Assembly (NCBI GenBank): GCA_963775425.1
Contig: CAVZJB010000006.1
Coordinates: 32,001 to 96,000 of the forward strand
Direction: 5' to 3'
DNA: 64,000 nt
Origin: an uncultured delta proteobacterium
GTDB lineage: Bacteria; Myxococcota; UBA727; VGSZ01
Below, in pieces: positions 10,396-22,470 of this stretch. A program made the translations under genes and the position numbers. The notes beneath the pieces were generated by a model, which worked only from the letters and a program-made list of their open reading frames with translations, searched no databases and had not been told where the DNA came from. Position 1 is the first letter of the stretch; every line of letters starts with the position of its first letter.

Positions 10396-13533
<3,138 letters not shown>

Positions 13534-13625
13534 CTGGCGCCCAACGTTCCCCGCGCGCGGCGTCACAAGTCAAGCAAACGGCCCCCCGTTGTGAATGCGA
13601 CCACCGACGGACACGTCCCTGCGCC

Positions 13626-14261
13626 ATGACCCCTGCCGCCTTCCTCACCCTCCTCGCCCTCCAGGCGCCGGCCCACGACGGGGACCGGGATCGCGGGCGC
13701 CCCACCGAGACCTGCCCCGCCGACGTCGTCGCCCGCTTCGATCGCCTCGATGATGCGCTGCGTCATCTGGGCGACGAGCTCGAGGACACCCACGGCCGCC
13801 GCCACCGCCGTGGCGAGCATGTCCGCGAGGACCTCGCCCTGGCCATGCGCCGCTCGCAGGAGGCCCGCGTCGAGGCCTGCCGCGCCGCCCGCCGGGAGGT
13901 GGTGGTGGCGCCGCGACCGCCGCCGCCGCCGCCGCCGCCGGTGCTCGACGAGGGCCACGCGCGCGAGCTCGTCCGCGCCGTGCGCAAGGAGGCCTTCGAC
14001 GACAGCCGCCTGTCGGTGCTGGCGCTCGGCGTGAACGGCGTGTGCGTGACGGCGCCGCAAGCGGACACCCTGGTGCGCCTGATGACCTTCTCCAAGGCGC
14101 GCATCGACGCGCTGCGCACGCTCACCCCGCGCATCGTCGACCGCCAGGACGCGCTGCGGCTGCTCGACGCTTTCACCTTCGACAGCGACAAGCGGGCGGC
14201 CCGGGAGATCCTCGGCACGGCGCCGCCGGCTCCGGAGTGCGTCCCGCCGCGCCGCCTGTAG
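13626..14261 (+). CDS. DUF4476-domain secreted protein
   Basis: KEAFDDSRL...MTFSKARIDALRTLTPRIVD...AFTFDSDKRAAREIL. Confidence 0.78.
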   Translation: MTPAAFLTLLALQAPAHDGDRDRGRPTETCPADVVARFDRLDDALRHLGDELEDTHGRRHRRGEHVREDLALAMRRSQEARVEACRAARREVVVAPRPPPPPPPPVLDEGHARELVRAVRKEAFDDSRLSVLALGVNGVCVTAPQADTLVRLMTFSKARIDALRTLTPRIVDRQDALRLLDAFTFDSDKRAAREILGTAPPAPECVPPRRL

Positions 14262-14285: not shown

Positions 14286-15620
14286 CTACGGGTGCGCGGC
14301 CGCGGGCGCGGGCGCGTCGGCCTTGCCCGTCTCGCCCGCGCGGTCGAGCCCGAGCTTGGCGAGGATGGCGCCGACGAAGGTGTTCACGCTCACGATGGCG
14401 ATGACCAGCGACGCGAAGGGCCGCCCGATGGACGGCAGCGTGTCGGCGACGATGGTGGCGAGGCCGATGGTGACGCCCGCCTGCGCGATCAGGGTCATCC
14501 ACGCGCTCTTGCGCACCGCGGGCGGGTCCTTCGCAAGACGGTGCGCCACCTGCGTGGACGCGATGATGACGACGAGGCGCACCGCGCAGAACGCCAGCGC
14601 CAGCGGCCACAGGTGCACCAGCGACTGCAGGTCGATCCGCGCCCCCGCCGTGGCGAAGAACACCGTCATCACGCCCGACGCCGTCTTCTCCGACGTGTGC
14701 ACCAGGGTGGGCCCGAGCCTGGTGAGGTTGGTGACGACGAAGCCCGCCACCACGAACACGAGCAGCGTGTCGTAGCGCAGGTACGTACACAGCGCCGTCA
14801 TCGCGTAGCCGAACACCACGACGGCCAGGATGCGCTCCTTGGTGATGCGCAGCGCGAGCGCCAACACCAGCCCCACCGTGATCCCCGCCAGCGCCGACGT
14901 CAAAAGCTCCTGTCCGAGCTCCTGGAACGCGCGCAGCTCGAACGGCTCGCCGAGCACGGCGCCGCGCGCGAGCGCCAACGCGGCGGCGAACAGCGGGAGC
15001 GCGAGCACGTCGAGGAGCACCACGACGCCCAGCGCGTGCTCCGACAGCGGGCCCTTGGCGTGGGCCTCGGACACCACGGCCATCGTGACGCTCGGCGAGC
15101 GCGGCAACATGAACACGCCCCACAACAGGGCGAGCGCGATGACGGCGCCTTTGTCGACGGACGCCATGAACGGCACGATGGGCACGGCGACCATGAACGC
15201 CGCCCCCATGGCGAGCACGACGAGGAACGTCTGCACCCACGCCGACCACAGCACGCTCTTGTAGATGCGCACCAGCGACGGGAGCGTGATCTCGGCGCCC
15301 GCCTGCAGCGCGATGAGCGCGAGCGCGAGCACGTTGGCGAGCGCGATGTCCTCGAGGTCCGCGGTGCGCACGATGCCGAGCACCTGCGGCCCGGCGACCA
15401 CGCCCGCGACGAGCGCGCCGATGATGCGCGGCATGCGGAGCAGGGCCGACAACGAGCCGGCGGCGGCGCCGGCGACGACGAGGAAGCCGAGGGCGAACAG
15501 CGCCTGCCCGTCGCGCGGCAACATCCCGAAGCGCTTCAACAGCAGGTACGCCACGGCCACGAGCACCACGGCGACGACGCCCTCGATCACGGCGAGCGGC
15601 TTGGGGCGGTTGGCGCTCAC
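14286..15620 (-). CDS. Cation:proton antiporter (Na+/H+ exchanger / Kef-type CPA family)
   Basis: About 12 TM segments; LRMPRIIGALVAGVVAGP, IALQAGAEI, SPSVTMAV, VVLLDV, FFATAGA, AQAGVTIGLA; GTG 15620 overlaps the upstream stop. Confidence 0.85.
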   Translation of the reverse strand: MSANRPKPLAVIEGVVAVVLVAVAYLLLKRFGMLPRDGQALFALGFLVVAGAAAGSLSALLRMPRIIGALVAGVVAGPQVLGIVRTADLEDIALANVLALALIALQAGAEITLPSLVRIYKSVLWSAWVQTFLVVLAMGAAFMVAVPIVPFMASVDKGAVIALALLWGVFMLPRSPSVTMAVVSEAHAKGPLSEHALGVVVLLDVLALPLFAAALALARGAVLGEPFELRAFQELGQELLTSALAGITVGLVLALALRITKERILAVVVFGYAMTALCTYLRYDTLLVFVVAGFVVTNLTRLGPTLVHTSEKTASGVMTVFFATAGARIDLQSLVHLWPLALAFCAVRLVVIIASTQVAHRLAKDPPAVRKSAWMTLIAQAGVTIGLATIVADTLPSIGRPFASLVIAIVSVNTFVGAILAKLGLDRAGETGKADAPAPAAAHP

Positions 15621-16831
15621 GGGTGATCCCTCACCGAGCCGCCCGAGTGCACGTCGCCGCCGCTCACGTGCGCGGACGACGGGTGCCCCATGGGCGGCGC
15701 CTGCTTGTGGGCCGCGAGCGAGAACGTGAACGCCACGGCGTCGGCGACGGCGACGGCGATGATGACGGAGGGCAACAGGCTGGCGGCGTCGTCGACGTGG
15801 GCCTCGGCGAAGGCGGCGACGGCGACCAGCGGCGTGGTGGACGTGGCCACGGTGGCCGCGAGGCGCTCGAGGAGCGAGCGCCCGTCCACGAGCGCGAGGC
15901 TGACACCGAGCTGCACGAGGACGGCGCCCACGCCGAGGATGATGCCGGCGACGAGGTCGGCGAGGTCGAAGGTGGTGGACGCCGCGAGCAGCACCGTGAT
16001 CACGATGCGCACCGGCCGCTCCGTGAGCAGCAGCTTGTCGACGACGTCGGAGCCGCGGAAGGGGCCGGACACGGCGCCGAGCACGAAGCCGGCGACGGCG
16101 CCGGGCACGGCGGCGAGGCGCGCGAGGCCGGCGACGAGCGTGGCGACGGAGAGGTAGGCGACGGCGGCGGGGACCTTGGCGGGATCGCCCGGCGCGAGCA
16201 GGAGCTGCACGACGACGGCGCCGAGCACGCCGAAGCCCACGAGGACGAGCGTCTCCTGTGCGCCGCTCCACGCGGCGAACGCGCCGAGGGCGGCGGCCAG
16301 CACCACGAGCTCGGCGGTGGCGGCGAAGGCGGTGCGCGCGCGCGTGCCGTGGCGCTCGCCGGGCATGCCCGCGAGGCTGGCGCCGACGAGGACGGCGGCA
16401 GGGGCGACGCTGCCGGCGCTGACGAAGGGGTGGCCGGTGGCCGCCGCCGAAAGGAGCACGAGCGCGGCGATGCCGGACGCGACGACGGCGGCGGCGAAGG
16501 CGAGCGCGACGGCGCGGGCGACGCTGCGCGGCGGCCCCTTGTGCACGGGCCCGGAGACGTCGGCGGGGCGCGGCGCGGACGAGCGCTTGAGCGCCGCGGA
16601 CGCGCGAAGGCCCGCGAGGAGCGCGAGCCAGCAGATCCCGACGACGAGCGCGGTGCCGAGGCTCTCGAGCGTGCTGGGGGTGAGGAAGTCCAGCCCCGCC
16701 GGAGAGATGGCGAGGCCGAAGAGCACGAGCACCGGGGTGGTGGCGCGCGCGATCACCTCGTCGAGCGCGCCCTGCCGCGAGGCGAGCATGGCGAGCGACA
16801 GGAGCCCGAGGAGGACGAGCAGCGACGTCAT
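15617..16831 (-). CDS. Divergent cation:proton antiporter-like membrane protein
   Basis: Multi-TM; LFGLAISPAGLDFL, WLALLAGL, ERPVRIVITVLLA resemble the CPA fold; sits upstream of the canonical CPA gene. Confidence 0.6.
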   Translation of the reverse strand: MTSLLVLLGLLSLAMLASRQGALDEVIARATTPVLVLFGLAISPAGLDFLTPSTLESLGTALVVGICWLALLAGLRASAALKRSSAPRPADVSGPVHKGPPRSVARAVALAFAAAVVASGIAALVLLSAAATGHPFVSAGSVAPAAVLVGASLAGMPGERHGTRARTAFAATAELVVLAAALGAFAAWSGAQETLVLVGFGVLGAVVVQLLLAPGDPAKVPAAVAYLSVATLVAGLARLAAVPGAVAGFVLGAVSGPFRGSDVVDKLLLTERPVRIVITVLLAASTTFDLADLVAGIILGVGAVLVQLGVSLALVDGRSLLERLAATVATSTTPLVAVAAFAEAHVDDAASLLPSVIIAVAVADAVAFTFSLAAHKQAPPMGHPSSAHVSGGDVHSGGSVRDHP

Positions 16832-16838
16832 GTCGCCG

Positions 16839-18458
16839 TCACGACTCCCCGTCGGCGAGGGCGAGGTCGCCACGCTCGACGGCCTCGACCAGGGCGCGCA
16901 CGAGGGCCTCGCGGGCCCCGGGCTTGGCCATCGGGACGAAGAGGCAGCAGTGCAGCGAGGTGCCGCGCGCGTCGAGCAGCTCGACGCCGCCGTCGGCGCC
17001 CGCGCGCTTGGCGACGGCGCGGAGCGCGGCGTCGAGCTTGTCCATGGCGCGGTCGCGGCGCACGACGACGTCGAGCTCGGCGCGCGGCGCCTTGAGCTGC
17101 TTGACGGGCATGAACATGAACGACAGGTGCGGCACGTGGATGGTGCCGCCGTGGTCGGGCACCAGGAGCACGTCGATGAGGTTCACCGCGGCGACCTCGC
17201 CGCGCGCGGTGCCGACCTCCACCCAGTCGCCGGGCTTGACGGTGCCCCGCCACAAAAGGACGACGCCGGCGGCGGCGGACGCGAGCACGGGCACCGACGA
17301 CAGCAGCGCGCACCCGCCGGCGGCGAGGGCGAGGGTCTCGAGCGGTGTTCCGAAGCGACCGAACGCGGCGGCGATGACGAGCGGCGCGGCGAGCAACGCC
17401 ACGCCGGCGCCGACGGCGACGCGCACGGGGAACACGCGTCCGGGCCCGATGACGCGCGAAGGGACGCGGCCCTGGGCGACGCCGTCGAGGAGGAGCTGGA
17501 CGAAGCGCAGGCCGGCGCGGACGGCGACGAGGAGGATGGCCGCGAGGACGAGGCCGGGGACGGCGCCGACGAGGCCGTTGATGCCGTGGACGAGCGGCGC
17601 GGCGGCCCAGCCGCCGAGGCTCTTGAGCACCGGGCGGGTGGCTTCGAACTGGCCGAGGACGGCGCCCACGACGACGCCGGCGACGACGACGTACGCGAGC
17701 AAGCGCGCGCCGAGGAGGCCGGCGGCGAGGAGGCCGCGGAAGGCGTCCGACGACAGGACGGGCTGGCCGAAGATGCGCAGCGGGGAGGTGGGGACGCGCT
17801 CCTCGAGGCGGGTCTCCCACGCGGTGAACGCCTTGCGGAGCGTGCGCAGGGTGACGAGGCCGAGGACGCAGACGAGGACGGAAAAGAAGATGCGCAAGGC
17901 GAGGGCCTGGAGCGACGAGCGGCGCTCCTCCTCCTTGACGAAGGAGGCCATGCGCGTGTCGAGCTCGGCGGCGTAGCGCTCGAGGGTGGCGCCCTCGGCG
18001 GCGGCGTCGGCCTCGGTGAGGGTGGCGACGGATCGGCCGTGGACGTCGACCACGGCGACGTCGTCGACGACGCGCACCTCGGCCGCGGGCGCGCCCTCGA
18101 CGGCGTCGGCCTCGAGCGCGGCGGCGAGCGCGGCCCCGGCGTCGCGCGCGCGGGCGCGGGCGCTCTTGCCGAGCCGCGGCACGCGGAACGACAGCGGCGT
18201 CGGCCGCTCGTGGACGGAGACGACGACGGCCTCGGGCCGTGTGACGCCGGCGTCCTCGGTGGCGCGCTCCACGCTCGGCGCGCCCCCGTCCACGACGACG
18301 CGCCCCGCCGGGGCGGGCACGCCGCCGTCGTCCTTGACCGCGCCGCCCGCCGAAGCCGGCACGCCGGCGTCAAGGGCGGCGCGCCCCTCCGAAGCCGGCA
18401 CGCCGCCGTCGGGGACCTGGGCGATCCCGAGGGCCAGCACGAACAGGAGAGAGGTCAT
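16839..18458 (-). CDS. Mechanosensitive ion channel (MscS family) with N-terminal periplasmic domain
   Basis: Signal peptide, several TMs, ASAAAGVVLLWRGTVKPGDWVEVGTARGEVAAVNL...GGTIHVPH (MscS beta-domain). Confidence 0.82.
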   Translation of the reverse strand: MTSLLFVLALGIAQVPDGGVPASEGRAALDAGVPASAGGAVKDDGGVPAPAGRVVVDGGAPSVERATEDAGVTRPEAVVVSVHERPTPLSFRVPRLGKSARARARDAGAALAAALEADAVEGAPAAEVRVVDDVAVVDVHGRSVATLTEADAAAEGATLERYAAELDTRMASFVKEEERRSSLQALALRIFFSVLVCVLGLVTLRTLRKAFTAWETRLEERVPTSPLRIFGQPVLSSDAFRGLLAAGLLGARLLAYVVVAGVVVGAVLGQFEATRPVLKSLGGWAAAPLVHGINGLVGAVPGLVLAAILLVAVRAGLRFVQLLLDGVAQGRVPSRVIGPGRVFPVRVAVGAGVALLAAPLVIAAAFGRFGTPLETLALAAGGCALLSSVPVLASAAAGVVLLWRGTVKPGDWVEVGTARGEVAAVNLIDVLLVPDHGGTIHVPHLSFMFMPVKQLKAPRAELDVVVRRDRAMDKLDAALRAVAKRAGADGGVELLDARGTSLHCCLFVPMAKPGAREALVRALVEAVERGDLALADGES

Positions 18459-19723
18459 CGGTCGATCTCCGTGCCGACGAGGCCGAGGCCGGTGATCACC
18501 GGGATGACGTCGTCGATGCGGTCACCGACGAGGATCTCGTCGAGCGCCGCCGCCAGCGCCGCCGACGGGCCCCGGATGCGCACGCGCGACGGCCGCGGGC
18601 CGCCGTCCGCGGCGACGAGGATCGACAGCTCACCGGACGGCAACTCCAACGACGCCGTCGCCATTCCGGCCGGCGGCGCCGCCGGCAGCTCCAGGCGCGT
18701 CTCCGCCGGCGCCGACGCCAGCTTGGTCAGCGCCAGCGCGCACAGCTCACCCGCGGCGATGGTCTCGCGCAGCCGCACGCGCGCCCGCGCCCGCGTACAG
18801 CCACCGTCGACGACGACGGGGACGACGGGGACGTCGTCGTAGGCGAACACCGGCTCGTGTTTCCTCAGGTCGTCGCCGACGCCGCACGCGCGCAGCGCCG
18901 GGCCGGTGAGCCCGAGGTCGGCGGCCTCGGTCCGGGAGATGCGCCCGAGGCCCTCGAGGTGCGCGTCGAGGGCCGGCGTCTCCTCCACCGCCTGCGCCAC
19001 CTCGCGCACCGACGAGAGCAACCGCGGCAGCTCCCGCTGGATGCGCGCGGCCTCGTCGTCGTGGATGGGGCGCAGCAGGCCGCCGAAGGCGCGAAAAGCG
19101 TCCCCGGTGAGCACGCCGTCGAGGAGCCCGCGCATGGTGCGGGCGCTCTCGAGCAACGTCCGGCGCGCGCGCGACGTCGCGGGCGACAGCGGCGGCGTGC
19201 TCAGCAGCCGCAGGTGCTCCGCCATGCGAGACAGCTCGAGCGCCACCACCCGCCAGAGCTGGGCGCGGCGCGGCACGTTTTCGTCGACGCCGTGCAAGCG
19301 CTCGACGACGAGCGCCCACGCGAGCTCGTGCCCCACCGGGGACAGCGGGTTCACGCGCGCGAGCACCTCGAACACGTCGGCCCACGCCATCCCCTCGGCC
19401 GCCTTCTCGAGGCCCTGGTGCAGGAAGCCCACCTCGGGGTCGACGGTGACGAGGCGGTCGCCGTCGAGCTCGACGCGGACCTGCAAAGGGAACGGCATGG
19501 CCCGGTGTACGGGCCCGAAGGTCCACACGAGGTGCTTGGCGAGCGTCGTCGTCGACGCACCCACGAGCGTCCCGCGCGCGCCGACGCGAAACAGCTCCTC
19601 CTCGATGGCGGGCCGGAGCAGATCGTCGTCGTCGGGCGGCGACAGCGGCGCACCCGGCGCGTCGGACTCCGCGACGGGGTCGGGCAGGAGGGCGCCGGGG
19701 AGCACCTCGAGGATCTGCCTCAT
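18455..19723 (-). CDS. nuoD: NADH-quinone oxidoreductase subunit D homologue, degenerate quinone site
   Basis: TFGPVH, VELDGD, GFLHQGLEKAAE, VPRRAQ, ELSRMAEHL, GLTGPALRACGV, DLRK, ELPSGEL, C-terminal TEIDR. Confidence 0.85.
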   Translation of the reverse strand: MRQILEVLPGALLPDPVAESDAPGAPLSPPDDDDLLRPAIEEELFRVGARGTLVGASTTTLAKHLVWTFGPVHRAMPFPLQVRVELDGDRLVTVDPEVGFLHQGLEKAAEGMAWADVFEVLARVNPLSPVGHELAWALVVERLHGVDENVPRRAQLWRVVALELSRMAEHLRLLSTPPLSPATSRARRTLLESARTMRGLLDGVLTGDAFRAFGGLLRPIHDDEAARIQRELPRLLSSVREVAQAVEETPALDAHLEGLGRISRTEAADLGLTGPALRACGVGDDLRKHEPVFAYDDVPVVPVVVDGGCTRARARVRLRETIAAGELCALALTKLASAPAETRLELPAAPPAGMATASLELPSGELSILVAADGGPRPSRVRIRGPSAALAAALDEILVGDRIDDVIPVITGLGLVGTEIDR

Positions 19724-20271
19724 GGCGCATCCCGCGACGCCGGCGCGGCGTCCTCGATGATCACGGGCGGCGGCACCTCGTCGTCGAGGAGCGCCACCAG
19801 CGGCTGCTGCTTGGTGGCGCGGTAGTCCTTCCGCAGCGGGTGCCCCGCGAAGCCCGGGTAGAGCAGCAGCGGTCGCAGGTGCGGGTGGCCGTCGGGGTAG
19901 ATGCCGAACATCTCGTGCAGCTCGCGCTCGAGGGAGTCGGCGGCGGTGAACAGCGAGGTGAGGCTCGGGACGGTGGGGTCGTCGTCGGTGGCGTGCGTGA
20001 CGATGTGCGCGCGGTAGCCGAGCCGCGGGCTGCGCAGGCGCACGTGCACCTCGAAGCGAGGCTCGGCGCCGGGGCCGAGGTCCACGCCGGCGACGTCGAC
20101 GAGCAGCGACAGATCGGCGTCGGGATCGCGCTGGAGGAACGCGCACAGCTCGAGGAGCCGCTCGCGCTTGACGATGAAGCGGTCGCCGTCCTTGTGCGCG
20201 GCGCCGCTGTCGACGACGTGGGCGCCGATGCGGTTGCGTACGAGCCGTACGAGGTGTCCCGGGCGGCTCAC
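19720..20271 (-). CDS. nuoC: NADH-quinone oxidoreductase subunit C homologue
   Basis: DVAGVD, RFEV, PSLTSLF, ERELHEMFGI, GHPHLRPLL, GHPLRKDY. Confidence 0.92.
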   Translation of the reverse strand: MSRPGHLVRLVRNRIGAHVVDSGAAHKDGDRFIVKRERLLELCAFLQRDPDADLSLLVDVAGVDLGPGAEPRFEVHVRLRSPRLGYRAHIVTHATDDDPTVPSLTSLFTAADSLERELHEMFGIYPDGHPHLRPLLLYPGFAGHPLRKDYRATKQQPLVALLDDEVPPPVIIEDAAPASRDAP

Positions 20272-20702
20272 GGCGCGAGCCCCGGCAGCCGCGCGTCGAG
20301 CGCGTCGAGCGCGCGCTGCATCATGGCCGCGCTCGGCGGGTGTCCGCGCACGACGACGTCGATGGGCACGATCTGCGAGATGTCGGCGACCCCGGCGTAC
20401 AGGTGCGGGACCAGGATCCCCTCGGCCGGCTCGAGCTCCACGACCATCGCCGTCGCGGGCCGCGACATGGCCGCGTGCGTGCGCACCACGAACGGCGCGA
20501 GCTTGTGGCTGATGCGCCCGACGATGACGAGCAGATCCGCCTGGCGCGCCGCCGGCGCGTCGGTGGGCACGCCGATGGGCAGCAGGCGCGGCTGCGCCCA
20601 GGCCTCGGCGTCGCGGCCCGGGAGCGCGCCGACGACGGCGACGCCGACGCGGCTCTTGCGGCGCGCCCAGCGCATGATGGGGCCGAGCACGGCGTCAAGC
20701 AC
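20268..20702 (-). CDS. nuoB: NADH-quinone oxidoreductase subunit B homologue lacking all Fe-S cysteine ligands
   Basis: WARRKS, RQADLLVIVGRISHKLAP, IVPIDVVVRGHPP (canonical GCPP); no Cys in the protein; position between nuoA-like and nuoC. Confidence 0.8.
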   Translation of the reverse strand: MLDAVLGPIMRWARRKSRVGVAVVGALPGRDAEAWAQPRLLPIGVPTDAPAARQADLLVIVGRISHKLAPFVVRTHAAMSRPATAMVVELEPAEGILVPHLYAGVADISQIVPIDVVVRGHPPSAAMMQRALDALDARLPGLAP

Positions 20703-21069
20703 GCGGCGACCCCGCCGGCGGCTCGGCCTCGACGGCGCGCAGGGTGCCGCGCCGCCACGCCCACCACACCGCGGTGAGGAGCGCGCCGCCGCCGACGAGG
20801 ACGGGGAGCGCGGCGTCGTCGGCGGGGCCGGCGGCGAACACCAGGAGCACGCCGAGCCCGGCGGTGCCGGCGCAGGCGAGCGCGATGACCTCGAAGAGGT
20901 GCACGTGGAAGCGGTGCCGCCCGCCGCGCGGCTCGAGCTCGCGCAGCGCCGTCGCGGAGCGCGCGTTCATCTCCTTGGGACGCAACAGGACGTGCAGCCC
21001 CGTCACCGCCAGGCCTGCGGCGACGACGAACGCGGCGACGAACGCGACCGAGGCGAGCGCGGTGGCCAT
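20695..21069 (-). CDS. nuoA: NADH-quinone oxidoreductase subunit A homologue, divergent
   Basis: 124 aa, three TMs, LLRPK, RFHVHLF, C-terminal WWAWRRGTL (canonical YAWRKGAL); first gene of the nuoBCD-like run. Confidence 0.7.
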   Translation of the reverse strand: MATALASVAFVAAFVVAAGLAVTGLHVLLRPKEMNARSATALRELEPRGGRHRFHVHLFEVIALACAGTAGLGVLLVFAAGPADDAALPVLVGGGALLTAVWWAWRRGTLRAVEAEPPAGSPRA

Positions 21070-21264
21070 GCGCCCCTTGTTATCCGCAACGCCGCGCGGT
21101 GCCAACGAAGACCGGTCGGGCGCCCGTGTCACCGAGCCCCCGCCCGTCGCCGGCGGCGGCACCCGGCCGTTCGCCGTCGTCGCCCCGTGGTGGACGTGGT
21201 CGGCGCCGTGCGGCTTTGACGTCCGCTCGAGGACGGCACATCGTCGCCGCGCGGAGGCGAACAC

Positions 21265-22470
21265 ATGGTCACGGCGCAGGACATCCACGACGCCAGGGCG
21301 CGGCTCGGCGACTCCATCAAGGTCACGCCGATGTTCGCGTCGGCCGCGCTCTCCGACGCCACCGGTGGGCGCGTCTCCCTCAAGCTCGAGAACCTTCAGG
21401 TCACCGGCTCGTTCAAGGCCCGCGGCGCCGGGAACAAGCTCCTCGGCCTCACCCCCGAGGAGCGCCACAGGGGCGTCGTCGCCGCGTCGGCGGGAAACCA
21501 CGCGCAGGGCGTCGCCTACCACGCGCAGCGCCTCGGCATCCCCGCCACCATCGTGATGCCGGTGTTCACCCCGCTCATCAAGGTCACGCGTACGCAGTCC
21601 TACGGGGCCCACGTCGTGCTCTTCGGCGACAACTACGACGAGAGCTTCGACGAGGCGGCGCGGCTCGCTCGAGACAAAGGCTACGTCTACGTCCACGCCT
21701 ACGACGACGACGACGTCATCGCGGGGCAGGGCACGGTGGGCTTCGAGATCGTCGAGCAGATGCCCGACGTCGACGTCGTGCTCATCCCCATCGGCGGCGG
21801 CGGCCTCGCCGCGGGCGCCGCCGTCGCCCTCAAGTCGGCCCGGCCCCAGGTGAAGATCGTGGGCGTCGAGACCGCCGTGCTGCCTTCGATGAAGCGCGCC
21901 ATCGAGGCAGGCGAGCCCGTGCGCCTCCCCGCGGCCCGCACCCTCGCCGAGGGCATCGCCGTGCGGCTCGTCGGTGAGCGCACGCTGCCCCTGTGCAGGG
22001 ACCTCCTCGACGACATCGTCCTCGTCGAGGACGACGAGATCGCCCGCGCCATCCTGCTCCTCCTCGAGCGCGACAAGACCGTCGCCGAGGGCGCCGGCGC
22101 CGCCGGCGTCGCGGCCCTCATCGGCAAGAAGCTCGACGTGCGCGGCAAGAACGTGTGCGTGCTGCTCTGCGGCGGCAACATCGACGTCAACGTGCTCTCG
22201 CGCATCATCGAGCGCGGGCTCGTGGAGACCGGCCGGCTGACGCGCCTCGAGGTGCGCATCCCCGACCGCCCCGGCGCCCTCGCCGAGATGCTCGCCGAGG
22301 TCGCCCGGTGCCGGGCCAACGTCGTCAAGGTCCACCACGAGCGCGCCTTCGTGCGCGGCGGCCTTGGGCAGGTGGGCGTGCAGCTCGTCCTGGAGACCCG
22401 CGGGCCCGCCCACGCCGCGGAGCTCATCGAGGCGCTGCGCGCGCTGGGCCACGTGCCGGAGCCCCTGTAG
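21265..22470 (+). CDS. ilvA: Threonine ammonia-lyase (short form with C-terminal ACT domain)
   Basis: KLENLQVTGSFKARGA, ASAGNHAQGVA, GQGTVG, PIGGGGL, CGGNID, ACT domain DRPGALA. Confidence 0.95.
   Translation: MVTAQDIHDARARLGDSIKVTPMFASAALSDATGGRVSLKLENLQVTGSFKARGAGNKLLGLTPEERHRGVVAASAGNHAQGVAYHAQRLGIPATIVMPVFTPLIKVTRTQSYGAHVVLFGDNYDESFDEAARLARDKGYVYVHAYDDDDVIAGQGTVGFEIVEQMPDVDVVLIPIGGGGLAAGAAVALKSARPQVKIVGVETAVLPSMKRAIEAGEPVRLPAARTLAEGIAVRLVGERTLPLCRDLLDDIVLVEDDEIARAILLLLERDKTVAEGAGAAGVAALIGKKLDVRGKNVCVLLCGGNIDVNVLSRIIERGLVETGRLTRLEVRIPDRPGALAEMLAEVARCRANVVKVHHERAFVRGGLGQVGVQLVLETRGPAHAAELIEALRALGHVPEPL

Follow-up and report, generated by a model that had tools for sequence, protein, structure and literature searches.

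Here we present an analysis of a NuoB homologue without a single Cys residue, encoded on the reverse strand at 20268-20702 of a 64,000-nucleotide stretch of DNA (the window) from an uncultured delta proteobacterium of the Myxococcota (assembly GCA_963775425.1, contig CAVZJB010000006.1, positions 32,001 to 96,000). The gene is the second of four overlapping genes that follow the A-B-C-D order of the quinone module of complex I. Because the ligands of iron-sulphur cluster N2 are absent, the NuoD-like subunit lacks the His/Tyr pair of the quinone site, and no NuoI, NuoE, NuoF or NuoG is there to feed in electrons, the module is, to judge from these sequences, very probably a paralogue of the quinone module that holds no cofactor and cannot carry electrons. 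As to its role, the explanation that we favour, with confidence just short of even, is that this redox-dead module is kept as a structure and has as its partner a set of degenerate membrane subunits of the complex I type encoded elsewhere in the same genomes.

In the usual view of complex I and the related hydrogenases, ion movement is powered by redox chemistry at the junction of NuoB and NuoD. The genes described here would constitute a junction stripped of both cluster and substrate site, yet long held under selection beside working copies.

A divergent NuoB homologue under purifying selection

The 144-codon open reading frame (ORF) starts with GTG, and its translation of 144 residues contains no Cys, in agreement with the sequence-only reading that had singled out this gene; the motifs quoted in that reading (WARRKS, RQADLLVIVGRISHKLAP, IVPIDV, GALPGRDA, ELEPA and GHPP) are all found in the translation. 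The G+C content of the ORF by codon position (0.81/0.51/0.97) fits a genome of high G+C (73.6% in the window) and thus marks it as a real gene, and the third-position value (GC3) lies between 0.95 and 0.97 across all four A-D-like genes. Furthermore, the ratio of nonsynonymous to synonymous substitution rates (dN/dS, Nei-Gojobori method) between the window gene and four orthologues, and among the orthologues themselves, ranged from 0.13 to 0.51 and was below 1 in all ten pairs, with the lowest values (0.13 and 0.19) in the closest pairs. If anything these ratios are overestimates, since a GC3 near 0.97 compresses the synonymous rate. The gene is under purifying selection.

Homology to NuoB was evident in profile, sequence and structure comparisons, as the sequence-only reading had proposed. 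Pfam PF01058 (Oxidored_q6) matched the protein at E 2.6e-4 with 21.2 bits, below the cut-off of 27, and eleven NCBIfam NuoB models matched at E 7.5e-13 to 3e-7, all far under their cut-offs (for example 48.3 bits against 116 for NF005012 and 45.9 bits against 142.7 for TIGR01957). In a phmmer search of the PDB chains the best match was the mycobacterial NuoB chain 8e9g_B at E 3.2e-9, and the 44 rows at E up to 1 comprised 41 NuoB/NDUFS7/NdhK-type chains, two hydrogenase small subunits and one unrelated chain (E 0.29). An AlphaFold2 model built with 48 family sequences had a mean predicted local distance difference test value (pLDDT) of 91.3 and a predicted template modelling score of 0.85; a Foldseek search of the PDB with this model gave, as the top 50 matches, NuoB/NDUFS7/NdhK-type chains of complex I or NDH-1 and no others (template modelling scores of 0.61-0.71, probability 1.00, lowest E 3.6e-9). 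Profile and structural matches are thus both significant, and the product is a NuoB homologue with a predicted NuoB-type alpha/beta fold. Under curated thresholds it is too divergent to bear the name NuoB.

Family-wide loss of the N2 ligands

The roles at issue, ligation of N2 by the tandem Cys pair and interaction with the quinone head group by His38 and Tyr87 of the Thermus enzyme, are those given in passages of PMC4758237. A set of 51 family rows (the window protein and 50 relatives) was aligned with canonical NuoB sequences, seven in number, among them both copies from this genome. All seven share Cys at four columns, which correspond to L27, P28, E91 and H121 of the window protein. Within the family, the first column is Leu in 41 rows and Val in six; the second is Pro in 36; the third is Glu in 26 and Asp in seven, with the others mixed; and the fourth is Leu in 15, His in six, Ala in six and Asp in five, again with the others mixed. 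A Cys at any of these columns occurs in just one row of the 51, at the second. Three of the 54 best-scoring database proteins were excluded from the count: P0048, which is 533 residues long, P0050, which has the canonical CC..C..C spacing, and P0054, which has three Cys elsewhere. P0050 shows that canonical NuoB proteins start to appear at about E 1e-10 in an exhaustive search.

Cys is absent from 27 of the 30 nearest relatives (identity 44-76%), and the remaining three have one or two at unrelated positions. The absence of Cys from 144 residues is not rare in itself; what counts, on the evidence of the alignment, is the family-wide replacement at four homologous ligand sites. The sites that the sequence-only reading had named as lost N2 ligands match the four alignment columns, and the 50 relatives show the same losses.

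The A-B-C-D operon

The NuoB-like gene is preceded by a gene for a NuoA-like membrane anchor (20695..21069; 124 residues) and followed by genes for a NuoC-like subunit (19720..20271; 183 residues) and a NuoD-like subunit (18455..19723; 422 residues), all on the reverse strand. Start and stop codons overlap at every junction: the NuoA-like stop overlaps the NuoB-like start by 8 nucleotides within GTGCTTGA, the B/C junction reads GTGA and the C/D junction ATGA, and a further ATGA joins the NuoD-like gene to the MscS-like gene behind it. We take the four genes, and the MscS-like gene with them, to be translationally coupled. An intergenic region at 21070..21264, presumably containing the operon promoter, separates them from a divergent threonine dehydratase gene (21265-22470; PALP and ACT domains in Pfam). 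No NuoE, NuoF, NuoG, NuoH or NuoI gene was found in the operon among the listed ORFs or in the Pfam matches of its genes, and wherever the genome encodes NuoH or antiporter-like proteins, it does so on contigs other than that of the operon.

The C and D subunits pass the Pfam cut-offs, at E 3.7e-32 and 111.9 bits against 22.5 for PF00329 in the NuoC-like protein and at E 1.6e-32 and 113.1 bits against 24 for PF00346 in the NuoD-like protein; the latter misses the NCBIfam NuoD equivalog cut-offs (201 against 360). In the HMMER alignment of the NuoD-like protein to Thermus Nqo4 (2fug_4), His38 is replaced by P77 and Tyr87 by P126. These replacements extend through the family, defined as 49 database members of 35-81% identity beyond which there is a sharp drop to canonical sequences: the His38 column holds Pro in 47 members and Ser in two, and the Tyr87 column Pro in 45, Val in three and Ala in one. 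Also, no Cys is invariant in the family alignment, so the protein has no NiFe site. Since the neighbour of the NuoB-like protein has thus lost its quinone ligands as well, the redox-dead state would extend beyond subunit B to the whole module.

The NuoD-like family has in addition an acidic N-terminal extension of its own, about 60 residues long, in which P9, D31, D32, R37, P38, E41 and L44 are invariant. A charge-complementary contact between this extension (residues 1-65) and Arg residues of the NuoA-like protein (R30, R51, R53 and R107) is conceivable from the sequences.

For the first gene of the operon (GC3 0.96), the label "NuoA-like" is suggested by operon position, size and topology, the homology evidence being inconclusive. 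The protein has three predicted transmembrane (TM) helices and a loop helix, and its AlphaFold2 model (pLDDT 72) places helices at 2-29, 36-45, 54-80 and 87-106 in the layout TM1, loop helix, TM2, TM3. It had no Pfam match at E up to 1, PF00507 included, and no NCBIfam match, and a whole-genome search for NuoA returned the two canonical NuoA genes and not the anchor. Against a six-sequence profile of canonical NuoA, hhalign gave E 0.0019 but a probability of only 14.6%, with the loop-TM2-TM3 region in register. Foldseek found no match for the model, VIA-align only a helical background at Z below 8 (two complex I chains reached Z 6.5-6.7 over about 60 residues), and a look-up in the ESM Atlas only unnamed clusters with scores below 0.9. 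A homologue of the protein nevertheless stands upstream of the NuoB-like gene in all ten loci that were extracted, with R30, R51, R53, E60, W103, R107 and G108 invariant.

Distribution and canonical paralogues

In a collection of reference genomes, the Cys-less NuoB-like gene was present at nine of 27 confirmed loci, all nine from Myxococcota or "Deltaproteobacteria" metagenome-assembled genomes, and the A-B-C-D synteny holds at these nine wherever the contig allows. Other myxobacterial loci (L011-L014, L016 and L018) are canonical, with CC..C..C. Within the class of the window, which comprises 38 species genomes, full-length matches were found in the window's genome (G000) and in 10/10 further genomes of family f1, 2/2 of family f2 and 1/1 of family f6, that is, in all 14 large genomes of these three families. 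The matched stretch shows the canonical Cys pattern in none of the 13 other genomes, three of these stretches being incomplete because the contig ends or the match is short. Families f3, f4 and f5, whose genomes are mostly small (0.3-4.6 Mb), gave no full-length match. Family f4 (21 genomes of 0.3-3.4 Mb) lacks the module, and some of its genomes lack any NuoB match. In a search of the whole phylum, the top 12 matches (at least 120 bits) clearly belong to the family and are confined to f1, f2 and f6, the score failing to separate distant Cys-less copies from canonical NuoB.

Synteny extends beyond the operon. The A-B-C-D order stands beside shared neighbours in L005-L010, L015, L017, L043, L046 and L066-L068, and the divergent threonine dehydratase gene adjoins the operon in L005, L006, L008, L009, L010, L017, L043, L046, L066 and L068. 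A longer flank of threonine dehydratase, a DsbA-like protein, a GGDEF sensor and a further conserved gene is found in L005, L008, L009, L010, L017, L043 and L046, of which L006 has the first only. Three metagenome contigs repeat the pattern of operon plus neighbours. The conserved flanks and synteny indicate vertical descent of the module from one ancestor of the three families f1, f2 and f6. No account of a Cys-less NuoB or of an A-B-C-D-only module in the Myxococcota turned up in a literature search.

The genome also keeps two canonical NuoA-B-C-D sets, on contigs C12 and C16, in which all four N2 Cys (the tandem pair and two others) and the His/Tyr pair are intact, together with two canonical NuoH genes. 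For this reason the module at issue is a third, paralogous set, separate from the respiratory NuoB and its partners. A third Oxidored_q6 match of the genome, on contig C11, was considered as a relative and set aside, as it belongs to an unrelated NiFe hydrogenase locus.

Some features of the canonical loci may be recorded here. The nuo cluster on C16 (G000:C16:764084-770239) has four antiporter-like genes against the usual three, and in it NuoH follows A-B-C-D without NuoE or NuoF between. At the Polyangia loci L011, L012 and L016, canonical NuoA-B-C-D is followed by NuoG-like, NuoH and NuoI-like ferredoxin genes, likewise without NuoE or NuoF between.

Taken together, the kept fold, the family-wide loss of ligands, the purifying selection and the presence in 14/14 genomes of three families uphold the proposal, made originally from the sequence of subunit B, that the protein is a pseudoenzyme subunit kept for structure or binding. 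The products of the four coupled genes would assemble into a membrane-anchored complex with the shape of the complex I junction, retained as a structural piece and not as an enzyme.

Candidate membrane partners

Two sets of degenerate complex I-like membrane genes are found elsewhere in the genome. The first is a NuoJ-K-L-M-N-like cluster (L065:4944-11252, equivalent to G000:C11:401943-408251) with no peripheral-arm genes beside it. It encodes a NuoJ-like protein (PF00499, E 8e-11), a NuoK-sized protein of about 105 residues with three helices, and three antiporter-like proteins with weak Pfam scores (E 2e-8, 1e-10 and 2e-20). Alignment of the divergent L-, M- and N-like genes with the six canonical antiporter-like genes of the genome showed that the Glu of TM5, present in five of the six canonical sequences, is lost in all three (Ala, Ile/Ser and Val), and that the Lys of TM7, again present in five of the six, is replaced by Arg, Arg and Met. 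At TM8, where canonical NuoM/N-type sequences have Lys and NuoL-type sequences His, the residue is lost in the M-like and N-like proteins, and the L-like protein keeps the NuoL-type His. By-eye alignment with the canonical NuoK of C16 showed both conserved NuoK Glu positions to be non-acidic in the NuoK-sized protein. We take these positions to be those of the charged proton-channel residues. Of 401 genomes sampled across the phylum, 13 carry the M-like gene (E 1e-25 or better), namely G000, 9/10 of the other f1 genomes, 2/2 of f2 and 1/1 of f6; the single f1 genome without it is 76% complete.

The second is an orphan, divergent NuoH-like gene (L032:9866-10936, equivalent to G000:C16:1035865-1036932; PF00146, E 1.6e-28). 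It directly follows a pair of M16 peptidase genes in five of six loci (those of G000, G028, G029, G031 and G001), the sixth, of G030, beginning inside the gene; G027 and G002 also carry it.

These genes and the operon would complement one another: A, B, C and D with H and J, K, L, M and N amount to one copy of each core subunit in a cofactor-free or stripped form, with none of E, F, G and I. Because of this complementarity of subunits and the identical distribution, we prefer the degenerate NuoJ-N-like membrane subunits, joined by the NuoH-like protein in most genomes, as the partner of the module, an assignment that we hold to be possible and not yet probable. On this assignment the A-B-C-D-like module would cap the degenerate NuoJ-K-L-M-N-like set, with the orphan NuoH-like protein in most genomes, to give a third complex I-like assembly that does no redox chemistry.

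Several observations weigh against the assignment. No locus with a Cys-less NuoB-like gene, among 13 from genomes and three from metagenomes, has A-B-C-D beside NuoH-like or NuoJ-N-like genes. The shared distribution amounts to one clade, and common descent alone may account for it. The NuoH-like gene stands behind the M16 peptidase pair and was not found, even by profile, in the six genomes of genus g4, which keep A-B-C-D; on these grounds we give it less weight as a partner. The identity of the anchor as NuoA is established neither by sequence nor by fold. Finally, the genes downstream of the operon encode ion channels and transporters of other families, which points to a different partner.

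The downstream genes as alternative partners

The genes in question form a block of three on the reverse strand. An MscS-like channel protein of 539 residues (16839..18458; Pfam MS_channel_2nd, E 4.3e-6, above cut-off) is followed by a polytopic membrane protein of 404 residues (15617..16831; GC3 0.97) that had no Pfam or NCBIfam match and belongs to no known family, and then by a CPA2-like Na+/H+ exchanger at roughly 14286..15600, whose start codon is not fixed (PF00999, E 7e-20; NCBIfam CPA2, E 7.7e-7, below cut-off). Only the first 80 or so residues of the 404-residue protein are recognisably conserved; its gene follows the MscS-like gene in L005/L064, L043, L062 and L063, and in the last three of these it is followed by the exchanger, at 43-48% identity.

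It is accordingly conceivable, if unlikely, that the module works with these three proteins, capping them on the cytoplasmic side or regulating ion flux, which would reuse the contact that the quinone module makes with membrane subunits in complex I. The arrangement of the genes speaks for this idea: beyond the overlap of the MscS-like start with the NuoD-like stop, the gene for the 404-residue protein starts 7 nucleotides after the MscS-like stop, and the same order of NuoD-like, MscS-like, 404-residue and exchanger genes, with the block directly after the NuoD-like gene, recurs in G027 (L043), a member of another family. In G001 (L062) the block is found on the operon strand, 8 kb away in the downstream direction, behind a DUF4215 gene insertion; in G002 (L063) it is on a different contig. 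On the other side, G028 (L005/L064) has the MscS-like gene directly after the NuoD-like gene and the start of the 404-residue gene but no exchanger in the locus; A-B-C-D is kept without the block in L006 (G031) and L068, where other genes directly follow the NuoD-like gene; and the search for an MscS-like gene gave no match in G031, G032 or G033. The association of the block with A-B-C-D is thus old but dispensable. Moreover, we know of no precedent for MscS or CPA proteins as targets of a NuoB/NuoD module.

The block has two conserved neighbours at its far end, genes for a DUF4476 protein (13626-14261, forward strand) and for a protein with response-regulator, DUF4388 and TPR domains (10396-13569, reverse strand). 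In L068 these two genes directly follow the NuoD-like gene.

Other explanations

A module of this kind could instead dock on the membrane arm of one of the two canonical complex I enzymes in place of the active quinone module, as a regulator, a parking or hibernation cap or a mimic of an assembly intermediate, a proposal that we consider distinctly improbable. The NuoB-like family retains motifs in common with canonical NuoB, namely W-A-R-x-x-S close to the N-terminus, RQADL and PVDV, and many of the residues that define the NuoD fold are retained too, so that interfaces of the canonical type may persist, and in genus g4 the sole NuoH-type gene found is the canonical-scoring one. Set against this, identity to the canonical subunits is just about 25-37%, and the module has a NuoA-like anchor of its own for which a swap-in cap would have no need.

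It is very unlikely that the NuoB-like protein remains redox-active by binding a metal or another cofactor through ligands other than Cys. In the window protein E91 and H121 do occupy two of the four ligand positions, but across the family the third and fourth columns are mixed, as given above, and the first two are mainly Leu or Val and Pro. No alternative ligand set is conserved in either the 51-row or the 48-row alignment: the only invariant residues of the latter are A55, D56, G62 and L135, and besides D56, with D115 nearly so, no His, Cys, Glu or Asp is invariant; both Asp residues are present in canonical NuoB. The NuoD-like partner is without substrate ligands too.

That the gene is a decaying pseudogene or an artefact of assembly or sequencing, to which the scores under curated Pfam and NCBIfam cut-offs might point, is hardly credible given the intact frames, the gene-like GC3, the dN/dS below 1 in every pair, the confident model, the occurrence of 30 close and about 20 more distant relatives in independent assemblies, and the presence in all genomes of the three families. 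An inhibitor decoy conferring self-resistance to myxobacterial quinone-site inhibitors was rejected as well, since the quinone pocket has lost its residues and the flanks of the operon hold no biosynthetic genes.

Implications and relation to known systems

If the scattered degenerate subunits are indeed partners of the redox-dead module, as in the explanation that we favour, they would form with it a rare case of a whole-complex pseudoenzyme. A stronger form of this idea, which we regard as somewhat unlikely, is that the three families may keep a complete but catalytically dead complex I, with A, B, C, D, in most genomes H, and J-N distributed over three loci. Such a complex, devoid of the iron-sulphur and flavin subunits, the N2 Cys, the quinone ligands and most of the charges of the proton channels, would have been turned to a non-respiratory job, such as scaffolding in the membrane or providing a gated path for ions. 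The module would also offer a natural test of which roles the fold of the quinone module has beyond electron transfer, among them assembly, conformational signalling and docking. On the practical side, public records name proteins of these families "NADH-quinone oxidoreductase subunit B/D" or "hypothetical protein", and names of the former kind would make respiratory complexes in Myxococcota genomes seem more numerous than they are.

Comparison with known systems points in the first place to two. Sections of PMC6349859 describe the Ehr complexes as kin of group 4 hydrogenases and complex I in which the large subunit lacks the catalytic metal ligands, and define their clusters by the presence of Mrp antiporter-like subunits, with a function thought to be redox-coupled. 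The likeness of the module to Ehr and to relatives of the Mbx/MBS type lies in a NuoD-like protein without NiFe Cys motifs. The differences are that its small subunit lacks the cluster too and that antiporter-like and NuoH genes are absent from the operon; across 16 loci, operon and flanks yielded no such gene.

With the quinone module of complex I (NuoA/Nqo7, NuoB/Nqo6/PSST/NDUFS7, NuoC/Nqo5 and NuoD/Nqo4/49-kDa) the module has in common the A-B-C-D order and, in its NuoB-like protein, the RQADL and PVDV motifs. It differs in the absence of the N2 Cys and of the quinone His/Tyr, in an operon devoid of NuoH, NuoI, NuoE, NuoF and NuoG, in its position as a paralogue beside two complete canonical sets, and in the acidic N-terminal extension of about 60 residues on the NuoD-like subunit. 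With N2 ligands, quinone ligands and an electron path absent, the module does not qualify as a member of respiratory complex I in the sense of an enzyme; the quinone module of complex I is nonetheless its closest known system.

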